Source: an uncultured Nitrososphaerota archaeon
GTDB taxonomy: Archaea; Thermoproteota; Nitrososphaeria; Nitrososphaerales; Gagatemarchaeaceae
Assembly: GCA_963718895.1 (NCBI GenBank)
Contig: CAVRAG010000007.1
Coordinates: 96,001-160,000, forward strand
DNA length: 64,000 bases
Direction of reading: 5' to 3'
The notes below the pieces were generated by a model. That model saw only the letters and a list, made by a program, of their open reading frames with translations, was not told the origin of the DNA and did not search any database. Of this stretch, positions 22,683-45,628 are shown one piece after another (positions within the stretch are counted from its first letter, which is position 1; every line of letters begins with the position of its first letter). The position numbers and the translations under genes were made by a program.

Positions 22683-23370
22683 GGTTCTGTTAATTCATCG
22701 GCTCGTGGGCGGGATTTGTCGGAGTGTTAAGTGTCTTCATGCCTTTTTCTCCCCTCTAAACTTCCACGGAACGCCATACTTATCGATGAATTGCCCATAG
22801 GTTCCAAATGGCATGTCACGTAGTTCCACGAAAAGTCCCTTATCCCTATCTGCTCTCTTTACAAGTCTATGAAAAACTACTCTTATCTCGTCATATGTTC
22901 CAGCTATGACAAATATGCCAACAGCGGTACCCTGTTTCGGCTCCCATGTTGGGGATGCCATCCAGTCTGAAGCGGTGATTTCTATGGCGCCGCTCTTCAG
23001 GTGAGCGTTAATGATTCTGTCATGTTTCTCCTTTGGATACTGGTCTTTCATAGGAGTATCACCAAGCTTCGTAAGAGTTAGTTCGCCTCCAAGACATTCT
23101 TGGTAAAAGGTCATTGCTTCAGAACAGTTGCCGTCAAACAAGAGAAATGGCGTAAGATACAACACAGTCTTGGAGACTCCAAGACGACACTTAGGCTTTG
23201 TGGGCGCATCCTCAGCAAGACACCCCGCATCGTCAGCCATGTCAGCCCAGTTGACAGCGCCCTCTCAGTCAGGCTATAGGTTACCAGAACCCTTTCTACG
23301 AAAACTCATCATGCGCCGCGAGTTAACAGAGAGACGACGCAGTAAGATGCGCCGATGAATTGACAGAACC
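22683..23370. mobile_element. Non-autonomous IS6-like cassette (MITE/transporter IS) with passenger gene
   Basis: 20-bp TIRs GGTTCTGTTAATTCATCGGC (22683-22702) and GCCGATGAATTGACAGAACC (23351-23370), 19/20 match; 8-bp direct repeat GACAAACC at 22675-22682 and 23371-23378; no transposase. Confidence 0.88.
22737..23165 (-). CDS. VOC family PhnB-like protein (cassette passenger)
   Basis: TPFLLFDGNCSEAMTFY...MPFGTYGQFIDKYGVPW; visibly AT-richer than flanks; start uncertain. Confidence 0.88.
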   Translation of the reverse strand: MLYLTPFLLFDGNCSEAMTFYQECLGGELTLTKLGDTPMKDQYPKEKHDRIINAHLKSGAIEITASDWMASPTWEPKQGTAVGIFVIAGTYDEIRVVFHRLVKRADRDKGLFVELRDMPFGTYGQFIDKYGVPWKFRGEKKA

Positions 23371-41993: not shown

Positions 41994-42505
41994 CTACTTC
42001 CGCATCTCTTTGGCAGCCGCTCTGACGGATGTGATTATGTTCTGGTAGCCGGTGCACCGGCAGAGGTTTCCCGAGAGGCCGAGCTTGATCTCGTCGTCCG
42101 TCGGATTCGGGTTCTCCTTGAGCATCCAGTAGGCCTCCATTATCATCCCGGGGGTGCAGAAGCCGCACTGCAGGCCGTGGTTGTCCCAGAAGGCCTGCTG
42201 GAGGGGATGAAGGGCCCCGTCGCGGGCCAACCCCTCTATCGTCTCGACCCGCGCCCCGTCAGCCTGGACGGCGAGCAGCGGTGCAGGACTTTATCGACTT
42301 GCCGTTAAGGACCACGGTGCAGGCGCCACAGTTGGACGTCTCGCAACCCACGTGCGTGCCCGTGAGCCCGGCGACGTCGCGGATGAAGTGGACGAGCAGC
42401 AGCCGCGGCTCGACTTCCCTCCTGTAGTCCACGCCGTTGATGTTAACGGAGATGCTTCTCAGCCCTGACCTCGCCGTCCTTTGACCTGGCGGAGGCTCTC
42501 GCCAT
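41994..42505 (-). CDS. coxS: CoxS/CutS 2Fe-2S subunit (frameshifted)
   Basis: [29 protein letters not shown]. Confidence 0.9.
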
Positions 42506-43386
42506 CAGCGGGCACCCCCCTTGGCTCTGCCTACGGCCAGCTGGAGGCCGCGCCGGGTGTAGACCTTTGCCATCTCCTTCTTGTACTCCGCCGACCCCCT
42601 CAGCGGGTCTGAGGATGGCTGTGCATCTTCCGAAGCCGCCTCGGCCGCCTCTTCGATCACCTTCGGAGTCAGGGGCCTTCCCAGAAGCGCAGCCTCTGCC
42701 TTCGCCGCTCTGAGGTTCTTGTTCCCCAGGGCTGTCAGTCCGATCCCGGCGTAGGCGCACGCGCCGCTCCTGTCTATGGTCACCTGCACCCCGACCGCCG
42801 CGGTCGCAAAGTCTCCCGTCCTTCTCTCGAGCTTGACGTAGGCGCCGCCGCTTCTGGCTGGAGGGATCGGGATGCTTATCTGGGTCAACAGCTCTGTCGG
42901 GCTGAGCGCCGATGTGAAGGTATCGACGAGGAAGTCGTCTATCGTCATGGTCCGCTCCTTCGAGGGACCTTTTATTCTCAGGGACCCTCTTACGGCGAGG
43001 ATTGCCGCGCCCCAGTCTCCGCTCGGATCGCAGTGTGAGAGCGAGCCTCCCATCGTGCCCATGTTTCTGACCTGTGGGTCCCCGATGGTGCCTGCGCACT
43101 CAGAGAGGATGAAGGCCTTCTCCTTGATGAGCTTCGACCGCTCTATGTCGTGATGGCGCGCAAGCGGGCCCACGAGTATGTTCCCGCCTGACTCCTTGAT
43201 GTAATCCATCCCGGGGATCCTGTTGATGTCGACTATGTACGCCGGCGACCCGAGCCTCAGCTTCATGACGGGCAGAAGGCTCATCCCGCCTGCCAGGACC
43301 TTCGCGTCGGAACCGTACTTCTTGAGAAGCGCGGTCGCGTCAACTACCGACTCGGGGGCAAAATACTCGAACTTGCGCGGTACCAT
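42505..43386 (-). CDS. coxM: CoxM/CutM FAD subunit of xanthine/CO dehydrogenase family
   Basis: LAGGMSLLP, IGDPQVRNMGTMGGS..DP..D. Confidence 0.92.
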   Translation of the reverse strand: MVPRKFEYFAPESVVDATALLKKYGSDAKVLAGGMSLLPVMKLRLGSPAYIVDINRIPGMDYIKESGGNILVGPLARHHDIERSKLIKEKAFILSECAGTIGDPQVRNMGTMGGSLSHCDPSGDWGAAILAVRGSLRIKGPSKERTMTIDDFLVDTFTSALSPTELLTQISIPIPPARSGGAYVKLERRTGDFATAAVGVQVTIDRSGACAYAGIGLTALGNKNLRAAKAEAALLGRPLTPKVIEEAAEAASEDAQPSSDPLRGSAEYKKEMAKVYTRRGLQLAVGRAKGGAR

Positions 43387-43497
43387 GTCGCGTGGCCCGT
43401 CGGGAGTGATTTTTGTAGATAAAGCTTCTGCTGTCCAGCTTTGGTAAGTTGACGGGCCATGCGTGGCGGTTAAATGGGTCGCGGGCATTTCCTACCA

Positions 43498-44747
43498 TTG
43501 CGAGCGACAAAGTGCGTCGTCCAGTCATATGAAGCCGATGGCCTAAGCGGCCTTCTTGCCGAATGTCTCACCCTGACCTACAACGGCATCAACTATGCTC
43601 AGGAGCACAAGATTGACGACAGGAAGGGGATGAAGGGGTTCTACCGGACGCTCAACAGACTCGAAGCTGCCTTCGTGCTACAAGGTGGCCGTGATTGGAA
43701 GGGCCTGCGAGGTCGTCGCGAGCAGGAAGAAGAGCGAGAGGCGCGGCGTGAAGACGAGGCATCCGAAGCCTCTCAGGCCCGTGGCCTGTATAGTCTCGGG
43801 ATTCTTCATCACCATGAAAGGGAGATTGTTCGTTCCTCTGCGCCGAGACAGATATTTCGACGCCCAGCTCAACCGGCACGTGATTGAGACGCTTGCAGGC
43901 AAGAAGGTTAGGAGCCTCACGATAACACCCGATAGGCTGTCGTTCTGCTACTCGGAAGAGGTCGAAGCCGCACCAGTGAAGACGGTCTACGGCGTGGACA
44001 GGAACGAGAAGAACATCACGTTCGGAGACAAGGACGGTGTGATTCAGATGGACATGGCGAAGGCCGTTAAGATGAGGCAGACGACGAGGGAGATCGTCGG
44101 CTCGTTCAGGAGGAACGACGTGAGGGTGAGGCGGCAGCTCGCCCGCAAGTACTGGAAGAGGTGCAACGACAGGACCAACAACCTCCTTCACGCCACCACG
44201 AACTTCATCGTCGGGACCGCTGCAAGGAACGGGGCGGCCCTCGCCCTCGAAGACCTCACAGACATCGGGAAGATGTACCGGAGGGGTAACGGTCAGGGAA
44301 ATGATTACAGGTTCCGGTTGAACTCATGGCCTCACTCGAAGGCCAAGCAGATGCTCGAATACAAGGCCGCTTGGAACGGAATGACCACAATTGCGCTTAC
44401 CAAGTCTGACACCAGAGGATCCTCATCGGAGTGCTCGGCGTGTGGGGAGAAGCTTCACAACCCAGAGAAGGGCGATGTCGCGCACAAGCGGATGCTCTGG
44501 TGTGAGAACTGTAAGAGTTGGACGGACAGGGACGTGAACGCGGCCCTGAACCTGTCCACGAGGGGGCTTGCAAGGTTCGCGAGTTCCCTTCCCGAGCCGA
44601 AGGGTCGCTCGCAACAAGCTGATCTTGAAACGAGGGAGAAAGGGCTGGCAGGTGAAGCGGTGAAGGGGAACGGGACGCGGACCCTAATCCTCCGAGTCGA
44701 TGCCAGCAAGCTGGTCGGTGGGCATGGCCCGTCGACTTACCAGAACC
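43498..44747 (+). CDS. tnpB: TnpB RNA-guided endonuclease (frameshift near 43660; no stop before the element end, frame reads on to 45148)
   Basis: TTG start ~22 nt after TTAAAT box; RuvC-I YGVDRN, RuvC-II ALEDL, Zn finger CSAC...CENC, RuvC-III DRDVNAALN. Confidence 0.9.
44570..44747 (+). ncRNA. Putative TnpB omega/reRNA scaffold overlapping the tnpB 3' end
   Basis: Lies between RuvC-III and the right end; stem GCTGGCA (44644-44650) / TGCCAGC (44701-44707); boundaries inferred. Confidence 0.45.
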
Positions 44748-44761
44748 TGCTGACAGGCGCG

Positions 44762-45628
44762 CTAGGAGCTCGTCGGGGCGGGAGACTCGCTGGGCGCGAG
44801 CTCCTTGTGAGGGAAGTGCTTCCCGCGCCTCGTCGCGGTGACGTCGGCCATTATGCTGAGGGCTATCTCCTCGGGGGTGACGGCCCCTATGTCTGCCCCG
44901 ATGGGGGCGTGTATCGACTGGATCAGGGGCTCGGGGACCCCGCTCTTTCTCAGCGCCTCGAGGTCGTCTCTGATTCGCTGGGCGCTCGCCATGATGCCGA
45001 CGAACCTTACCCCCTTCCTGGTGAGAGTCTCAAGGGTCTTCACGTCCCTCTCCCCCTTGGTGAGCACCACCACCGAGTCGGAGGCGGAAAACGGGAAACC
45101 GTCCAAGTCGTAGTCCAGGTCGGTGATGAGGGTGTCGGGTTCCTGTGATAGTATCGGAAGATGGTCTATCACCACCGTCTCGTATCCGAGCATGCCTCCG
45201 AGGCGGACCAGCCCGTCCTCGATGTCGTCCTTGCCTCCCTGGCCCACAAGGACCAATCTGTCCGTGGGCAGATAGGGGTCCACGTATATCTCCATCATCC
45301 CTCCGCACTTGACCTCGACATAAATCTCATCCGGGTTCTTGTTCTTCAGGGTCCCGTCCAGGGCACCCCTGGCATCCTCGAGGTAGACCTTGACGACCTT
45401 CGCCTTGCCCGTGTGCAGCGCCTCCATGGCCATCGTCGCTATCGCGGACTCTGGACAGACGCCTCCCACGGTCCCCTGGATGATCCGGCCATCCTTCGAG
45501 ACCACGGCCTTGAAGCCTGGCTTCCCGATAGACGAACCATGGATTCTCACGACGGTCGCAAGGACGAACGGCTCCCTCCTTTCGGCGAGGTCGTTCATGA
45601 CCCGGGTGAGGTCCTTTACCTTAGGCAT
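44762..45628 (-). CDS. xdhC: XdhC/CoxF molybdoenzyme maturation factor
   Basis: LATVV..HGS, GTVGG.C.E, CGGMMEIYVDP, APIGADIGA.TPEEIALSI. Confidence 0.9.
   Translation of the reverse strand: MPKVKDLTRVMNDLAERREPFVLATVVRIHGSSIGKPGFKAVVSKDGRIIQGTVGGVCPESAIATMAMEALHTGKAKVVKVYLEDARGALDGTLKNKNPDEIYVEVKCGGMMEIYVDPYLPTDRLVLVGQGGKDDIEDGLVRLGGMLGYETVVIDHLPILSQEPDTLITDLDYDLDGFPFSASDSVVVLTKGERDVKTLETLTRKGVRFVGIMASAQRIRDDLEALRKSGVPEPLIQSIHAPIGADIGAVTPEEIALSIMADVTATRRGKHFPHKELAPSESPAPTSS

Follow-up and report, generated by a model that had tools for sequence, protein, structure and literature searches.

Known hosts of TnpB and the IS6 family

TnpB, the ancestor of Cas12, is encoded by one of the commonest archaeal genes, and to our knowledge its biology has been established only for IS605 and IS607 elements, which excise scarlessly. 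Here we describe a tnpB element of another build, found in a stretch of 64,000 nucleotides (positions 96,001 to 160,000 of contig CAVRAG010000007.1, GenBank assembly GCA_963718895.1; hereafter the window) from an uncultured Nitrososphaerota archaeon of the family Gagatemarchaeaceae. The element is 1311 bp long (window 43437-44747) and occupies a short intergenic stretch whose two neighboring genes, xdhC and a coxM-like gene, are both on the minus strand. We consider it probable that it belongs to a non-autonomous archaeal transposon family, in which a TnpB/omega-RNA cargo is carried between IS6/IS240-type ends, makes an 8-bp target duplication, and is mobilized in trans by an IS240-type transposase.

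IS200/IS605 elements are described in the text of a 2026 review as having subterminal hairpins, neither terminal inverted repeats nor a target duplication, and single-strand movement by means of the Y1 transposase TnpA (PMC13565253). A connection between TnpB and DDE transposases has been published: the TnpB branches DDE-1 to DDE-6 are associated with such transposases and with symmetrical ends, IS630 being the family named in the main text and a possible link to Fanzor being seen by the authors (Altae-Tran et al., 2023, PNAS; PMC10691335). The 2026 review names ISL2, IS630, and IS1031 as the DDE families with TnpB (PMC13565253). Fanzor is an RNA-guided nuclease found in elements with inverted repeats and target duplications (PMC3627910; PMC13565253).

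The IS6 family is recognized by GG tips, a G at position 7, and an 8-bp duplication (PMC6807381), and its tips are also described as "GG" with cTGTt and caaa internal motifs (PMC7986276). The consensus given for the bacterial repeat is GGTTCTGTTGCAAA, and archaeal IS6-like members have longer repeats (PMC6807381). Two transposase-less miniature transposable elements with inverted repeats (MITEs) of this family are listed in ISfinder (PMC6807381; PMC7986276). The text of a 2021 review of the family notes only one member with a passenger gene and does not mention TnpB (PMC7986276).

The literature search, which did not extend to supplements (these may list DDE families, including IS6), gave no report of TnpB in IS6-type ends; nor did it turn up omega-RNA MITEs or a linkage of archaeal IS6-like insertions to promoters. 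As far as these main texts go, the linkage of TnpB to other DDE families is already known; the IS6-type ends, the omega-RNA MITEs, and the insertion at the side of promoters are new.

A tnpB element with IS6-type ends

The features of the element in the window are as follows.

43429-43436, no strand: left copy of the 8-bp target duplication, TGCTGTCC
43437-43462, plus strand: left terminal inverted repeat, AGCTTTGGTAAGTTGACGGGCCATGC
43498-44747, plus strand: tnpB, with a frameshift at 43654-43657 and the stop lost (tblastn; Pfam Cas12f1-like_TNB; translations)
44580-44747, plus strand: predicted omega-RNA scaffold region, structured core about 44644-44741, 5' limit uncertain (RNAalifold on an 18-sequence alignment)
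44722-44747, plus strand: right terminal inverted repeat, ending ...CTTACCAGAACC, with the tip ...CCAGAACC
44748-44767, plus strand: right copy of the duplication, TGCTGACA (44748-44755), also the predicted start of the guide

The left and right 26-bp ends match in inverted orientation at 22 of 26 positions, against a maximum of 18/26 when the two end windows of 100 nt were shuffled 300 times with their composition preserved. The flanking 8-mers, TGCTGTCC and TGCTGACA, are identical at 6 of 8 bases. The right end read inward, GGTTCTGGTAAG..., fits the IS6 criterion of a GG tip, G7, and a cTGTt core; the tip of the left repeat is worn, reading AGCTTTGG where the family has GGYTCTG. The right boundary of the element is also seen in a metagenome contig, which loses its match exactly at 44747. 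The initial annotation, which was made from the letters of the window, had described the 26-bp inverted repeats, the likeness of the 8-bp flanks (43429-43436 and 44748-44755), and the location between xdhC and coxM, and these descriptions hold, the last through the Pfam domains of both neighbors. Taken by itself, the window copy is an old, decaying relic; the interest lies in the family to which it belongs.

Family copies, target duplications, and empty sites

Related copies are present in the genome of the window (G000; 3.1 Mb, 11 contigs, 80.5% complete) and in 22 of 22 genomes of the same genus, and 25 places were fetched from these relatives for the family comparison. Every copy with a right end is conserved through ...ACAGAACC (CAGAACC) and diverges immediately afterward. 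The homologs at 24 further places in genomes of the genus all finish in CAGAACC. The left ends across the family are GGYTCTG-like (the family ends read GGYTCTGT...), and 18 of the 22 tabulated elements have a left end that matches the right one at no fewer than 15 of 22 positions.

For the duplication, the 8 bases after the right end were sought in a zone of 210 nt about the place where the left end was expected. They recurred perfectly, directly before a GGYTCTG-type left end, in 8 of the 25 elements and with one mismatch in five more, ten copies with worn or unfixed left boundaries being left unresolved in this test. Control 8-mers taken 8-64 nt further out had a perfect match anywhere in the zone in 3 of 200 cases. 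The xdhC-coxM spacer is empty in four relatives, each having a single TGCTG-like stretch after AAAG[C/G]TTC, and the site of a short derivative of the family in G000 (C4:191798-192054, described below) is likewise empty in four relatives, with a single copy of the duplicated 8-mer. The same architecture occurs elsewhere in the phylum, in other families, A+T-rich genomes among them, with ends GGTTCTGTCAA... and ...CTTGACAGAACC; in distant genera, duplications of 8/8 and 7/8 were found by eye. GGYTCTG...CAGAACC ends with 8-bp duplications in homologs, and empty xdhC-coxM sites in relatives, were found as the initial annotation had anticipated, and its reading of the element as a non-autonomous one of the IS6 type gains support from the duplications of the family, the empty sites, and the IS240-like ends described next.

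IS240-type elements with matching ends

The only gene of the window element is tnpB, and a DDE_Tnp_IS240 transposase is not encoded; the element can only be a non-autonomous IS6 derivative, comparable to a MITE with cargo. Non-autonomy extends to the TnpB elements in general, because both tnpB and the omega RNA are absent near 24 of 24 IS240 loci.

The ends of the TnpB elements fit the published IS6 repeat criteria, and in one TnpB subfamily 11 of 14 bases are those of the published bacterial IS6 consensus. G000 has a single IS240-type element (C1:30554-31347; locus L009:1210-2003), which is 794 bp long and has a perfect 18-bp inverted repeat, GGCGCTGTCAAGTTAAGG, and an 8/8 duplication, GTCGCTCA. 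Among the relatives, IS240 elements of 1.9-2.8 kb have 8/8 duplications at five loci (L047, L048, L050, L106, and L110), and an IS240 element of about 946 bp (L055) begins with the same 11 bases as the right end in the window. The identity between IS240 and TnpB-element tips reaches 18/20. IS6-type transposases with matching ends, for which the initial annotation had proposed a search of the genome, are thus found in the same genome and phylum, with the same tips and 8-bp duplications. Judging from these common ends, the TnpB elements would be moved by an IS240-type transposase acting in trans.

The transposases at L047, L048, L050, L106 (a protein of 370 aa), and L110 have N-terminal zinc-finger (SWIM-like) extensions, and the same elements carry one or two extra open reading frames (ORFs) of unknown function, a cargo exceeding the single IS6 passenger gene noted in the 2021 review.

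No Y1_Tnp (PF01797) was found in G000 and five relatives, one of them a single-contig genome that is 95% complete, although the genomes are incomplete and absence is not proof, and no Resolvase/serine recombinase (PF00239) match was found in G000 (80.5% complete). The initial annotation had reported that TnpA was missing from the element, and this agrees with the survey of the six genomes for Y1_Tnp and of G000 for Resolvase. The search for rival transposases covered the Y1 and serine recombinase families, and other DDE families were not searched for.

Omega RNA and derivatives without a gene

The last ~170 nt of the element are conserved far better than the rest and are kept in gene-less derivatives. 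RNAalifold on an alignment of 18 sequences gave 26 consensus pairs, of which 12 show compensatory double changes, for example the exchange of a GG...CC stem for CC...GG. The last stem is formed by the inner part of the right repeat, which is its 3' arm in the window copy, and the final 6-8 bases (ACAGAACC) are unpaired and are followed by the flank. We have here a predicted omega RNA that overlaps the 3' end of tnpB and ends at the transposon end; no Rfam family matches window 43300-44900. The RNA is presumably produced, and the right flank would serve as its guide because TnpB works so elsewhere. Eight predicted omega-RNA guides of G000 match their own flanks only, with no second genomic target.

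Four omega-RNA-only MITEs with IS6-type ends, 249-257 bp long, are present in G000 (C4:191798-192054, C8:385683-385939, C8:574167-574415, and C8:877639-877894). Each is built from the left end, what remains of the 5' region, the omega-RNA region, and the right end. Three, whose duplications are 8/8, 8/8, and 7/8, show 96-97% likeness to one another, and the fourth is older. The high likeness and the near-perfect duplications indicate recent movement of such ends without any gene.

Two further elements of G000 deserve description. The element at C8:432174-432563 is an internal-deletion derivative of a tnpB element. Its first ~190 nt, from the gene region, continue straight into the last ~140 nt, so that the omega RNA and the right end are retained. 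The other, a 688-bp element within the window (22683-23370), has the same end type (each end GGTTCTGTTAATTCATCGG..., 20/22) and an 8-bp duplication without mismatch, GACAAACC, with a TATA-like box 5 nt from the duplication on the right side. It has no tnpB; its cargo is a 167-aa minus-strand ORF (22737-23240) matching PF06983 and the glyoxalase superfamily, and pieces of further IS6-like tips are present in its interior.

The tnpB gene and its protein

The tnpB gene of the window is 77% identical to an intact 422-aa relative (tblastn). Residues 1-52 are encoded by 43498-43653 and, in another frame, residues 54-411 by 43658-44731, indicating one frameshift at 43654-43657. The TGA stop of intact relatives sits inside the tip of the right repeat (CTTGACAGAACC); in the window this tip reads TTACCAG, so that the stop is lost and the frame extends to 45148. 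Because both tnpB copies of G000 carry single frameshifts and its lone IS240 copy looks frameshifted, assembly indel errors are possible. Small shares of the locus occur in six DNA metagenomes, and the sequencing-run search gave no RNA run. The contigs from four of these six metagenomes are short; none covers the frameshift site, and none gives joints.

Despite the broken frame, the window copy retains the RuvC D, E, and D and the CxxC...CxxC zinc ribbon. The initial annotation was correct as to the three acidic residues of RuvC; the gene itself is not intact, with the frameshift and the lost stop. D167, E251, and D345 are invariant in the TnpB alignment (A1) and align with a solved TnpB-like nuclease; a search of PDB sequences gave weak matches only, to TnpB/Cas12f, and the protein matches PF07282. 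The median dN/dS of the TnpB family is 0.17 (61 of 66 pairs), and a full-length frame (ORF of at least 410 aa) is kept in 18 of 26 copies. The TnpB protein is under purifying selection. Its close homologs bear names that point to Nitrososphaerota/Thaumarchaeota. A regulatory, TldR-like role was considered and dropped, the catalytic residues being kept and the guide matching the far flank only.

A third, more distant tnpB of G000 lies outside the window on the same contig (C7:547680-548903). It is broken in two frames, and its right end finishes ...GTTATCAGAACG, which is the same tip type.

Insertion beside host promoters

The host genes on either side of the element, and the two A/T-rich boxes at its left end, are as follows.

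42505-43386, minus strand: host coxM-like gene (CO/xanthine dehydrogenase FAD-binding subunit; Pfam FAD_binding_5 and CO_deh_flav_C)
43409-43424, minus strand: host A/T-rich TATA-like box, putative promoter of the coxM-like gene; the plus strand reads ...TAGATAAAG
43470-43475, plus strand: TTAAAT box inside the element (from the sequence, with equivalents in other copies)
44762-45628, minus strand: host xdhC (Pfam XdhC_CoxI and XdhC_C), whose stop codon lies 6 nt past the right duplication copy

The family shows a marked preference for one kind of place. At 19 of 22 insertion sites, a 7-base window in which 6 or more bases are A/T has its end 4-7 nt left of the duplication, compared with 2.8% of 20,000 random positions and 2 of 22 mirrored right flanks (one of these two belongs to an element with arbitrary orientation). 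The 22 sites comprise 15 resolved copies from relatives and 7 G000 elements; two are orthologous, leaving ~21 independent sites. The site consensus is TATTTAAG-C-N-T-T-N followed by the duplication. When more insertion sites were sought in relatives, most stretches held the right end only; four MITE sites were usable, and three of the four fit the box pattern (L122 does not). The boxes are also present in the empty sites of relatives (that of the coxM-like gene in four of them), and the idea that the TATA box is a part of the element was dropped for this reason.

In 121 cases in G000, the ATG of a long ORF follows an A/T run of 7-10 nt whose end lies 22-25 nt upstream, over a background of ~5-13 per 2-nt bin well away from this peak. 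The peak is the expected TATA pattern and suggests that many G000 genes are leaderless. The boxes beside the insertions are, from their sequence and position, taken to be promoters of leaderless host genes: at 15 of 21 sites an ORF of the host, 80 aa or longer, begins 16-33 nt beyond the box and is directed away from the element, and at 2 of 21 one is directed toward it. In the window, the host gene beyond the box is the coxM-like gene. The box (43409-43424) is 4 nt away from the duplicated target on one side and 22 nt away from the ATG at 43386 on the other, the latter distance being in line with the genome-wide spacing of 22-25 nt; from the ORF and this spacing, the gene should start at 43386, giving a protein of 293 aa, rather than at 43488, the start of the longest ORF. 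The elements are placed immediately upstream of the core promoter with the left end toward it, so that tnpB and the host gene are divergent. Through the 8-bp duplication, the bases native to the upstream side of the promoter are preserved there.

The element seems to bring a promoter of its own. The TTAAAT-type box lies 22 nt ahead of the tnpB start and ~33 nt in from the left end, and boxes reading GGTTAAAT, GGTTATAT, and GCTTAAGT occupy the same place in other copies. It is likely the promoter of the element, since its spacing to the tnpB start matches that of the A/T boxes genome-wide.

Weighing of alternative explanations

Several observations weigh against mobilization by an IS240-type transposase and against a sharply defined target. 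No element with both tnpB and an IS240 transposase was found (0/24 IS240 loci), neither tnpB nor omega RNA lies within ~1.5 kb of any of the 24 loci, and no transposition was observed, so the link to the transposase is drawn from the common ends and the duplication length. Co-occurrence is weak: an IS240 match is found in 3 of 8 genomes with the TnpB clade and in 56 of 301 genomes overall in the phylum sample. One genome (G021; assembly 69% complete) has several well-preserved copies but only transposase fragments, and the lone IS240 copy of G000 seems to be frameshifted near its C-terminus. The ends are unresolved for 6 of 11 same-genus IS240 loci (L046, L049, L051, L053, L054, and L056). Members of the IS6 family move by replicative cointegrate formation; archaeal IS6-like elements have no experimental record in the text of the survey of the family (PMC6807381). 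As for the target, 10 of the 25 same-genus copies had an unfixed left boundary and were left out of the target-site counts, and the spacing to a promoter box is seen by eye in only ~3 of 6 autonomous IS240 elements with resolved ends. Its presence in these few suggests, weakly, that the target preference belongs to the transposition machinery. No single motif stands in the 5 nt before the duplication (TT at -3/-2 in ~11 of 19 sites), and therefore a target-adjacent motif (TAM) is not evident.

An ordinary IS200/IS605 element of the IS1341 group, carrying tnpB alone, would have to owe its repeat to the likeness of subterminal hairpins and its 8-bp likeness to chance. The proteins of the family bear the source label "IS605 OrfB family transposase," the right end holds an imperfect palindrome, and 6/8 identity of the flanks is weak for the window copy alone. 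We nevertheless regard this explanation as extremely improbable: perfect 8-bp duplications are found in 8/25 elements versus 3/200 controls, the inverted likeness reaches the very tips, outside the stem, the empty sites have a single 8-mer copy, no Y1_Tnp occurs in the six genus genomes, and IS200/IS605 elements are described as lacking inverted repeats and duplications (PMC13565253). The initial annotation had named homologs of the IS605 type, without terminal repeats or duplication, as the outcome that would tell against it, and the family shows repeats and duplications instead. It is improbable, if less so, that another transposase family with GG tips and an 8-bp duplication moves the element and that the IS240 likeness is convergent or ancestral. 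Several IS families do combine GG tips with 8-bp duplications. G1, G2, and G7 also occur in the repeats of other families, according to the same survey (PMC6807381); IS240 co-occurs in only 3/8 genomes of the TnpB clade, and G021 has no intact IS240 gene in its 69%-complete genome. Against this rival, weighed after a search that covered the Y1 and serine recombinase families, stand the elements of the same genomes that encode IS240-domain transposases: as many as 18 of their 20 outermost end bases are those of TnpB elements, and they have the 8-bp duplication as well.

The adjacency to promoters might reflect survival, random insertions persisting only where genes and core promoters are spared. 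Most insertions are harmful in compact genomes, and an insertion upstream of the B recognition element (BRE) and TATA box leaves the promoter whole, with the duplication restoring the upstream 8 bp. This account is unlikely in our opinion, given that the spacing of the box is fixed within ~2 nt at 19/22 sites, that the orientation is one-sided (leftward host starts at 15/21 sites versus rightward at 2/21, and mirrored boxes at 2/22), that harmless sites between convergent genes are unused, and that the recently moved MITEs with perfect duplications follow the same pattern. The fixed spacing and orientation argue for targeting over survival alone.

Proposed mechanism

For the non-autonomous family with IS6/IS240-type ends, the following course can be proposed. 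An IS240-type DDE transposase would bind both ends in trans and insert the element upstream of a promoter, placing the left end 4-8 bp from the host TATA-like box, with tnpB pointing away from the host gene and the core promoter whole. The right repeat has a second role, forming the last stem and the 3' tail of the predicted omega RNA, and its tip contains the tnpB stop codon in intact relatives. The omega RNA would continue into the right flank, its guide opening with the 8 duplicated bases. In an occupied site the left 8-base copy precedes the left end and would not make a full target; an unoccupied allele, in which the 8 bases are followed by the right flank, would be cut by TnpB and repaired from the occupied copy, which amounts to homing. 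The stretch from the TATA box to the duplication, which has no more than a T-rich tendency, would act as the TAM, and this is the least secure step.

We tentatively suggest, as a possibility that we do not favor strongly, that the IS6-like machinery reads the promoter itself (BRE/TATA, perhaps with bound TBP/TFB), giving the fixed and oriented insertion, that the TAM lies at the upstream edge of the promoter, and that TnpB, with a guide opening in the duplication, is specialized in cutting unoccupied promoters and so drives the element into them. Direct reading of the sequence by the transposase is as possible as tethering.

Implications

With DDE-type ends and a duplication, the guide must begin in the duplication and the TAM must lie outside the element, in the old flank. 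A nuclease in such ends could serve only the invasion of empty sites, not the restoration of excised ones. The family would be a prokaryotic counterpart to Fanzor in DDE transposons, and it is a warning that gene-neighbor surveys misfile such elements as IS1341-like. Should the fixed, oriented insertion at archaeal TATA boxes prove to be true targeting, it would amount to promoter-directed transposition and to a natural safe-harbor rule. The omega-RNA-only MITEs mean that guide RNAs can spread without the nuclease. If promoter reading and homing are true, many archaeal "TnpB-only" elements would be DDE-mobilized rather than IS605 relics.

Comparison with known systems

The window element resembles the IS1341 group in that tnpB alone fills the element, the predicted omega RNA runs over the 3' end of the gene to the right end, and no transposase gene is present. 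It differs from IS200/IS605 in that the present family has inverted repeats of 22-26 bp and 8-bp duplications, with no Y1 gene in six genomes. IS607 elements have a serine recombinase TnpA and neither repeats nor a duplication, whereas duplications are present here and PF00239 is not found in G000. The likeness to IS6/IS26 lies in the GG tips, the G at position 7, the CTGT core, and the 8-bp duplication; members of that family encode a DDE_Tnp_IS240 transposase, but the present element does not.

The integration of yeast Ty3 at a fixed distance beside RNA polymerase III start sites, via TFIIIB, offers an analogy for the target choice, since insertion is near a site of TBP and a TFIIB-family factor; Ty3 differs in having a eukaryotic retrotransposon integrase. 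Among TnpB systems, the DDE-1 to DDE-6 branches were found, according to the main text describing them, through a transposase gene beside tnpB. The present element is non-autonomous, and a neighbor-gene survey would therefore class it as IS1341-like. The parallel to Fanzor drawn in the initial annotation is a fair analogy, less unprecedented than was implied because TnpB with other DDE families has been published (PMC10691335). Fanzor has eukaryotic and viral hosts and is carried by other transposon superfamilies, whereas the family described here would place TnpB and its omega RNA between IS6/IS240-type ends in archaea.

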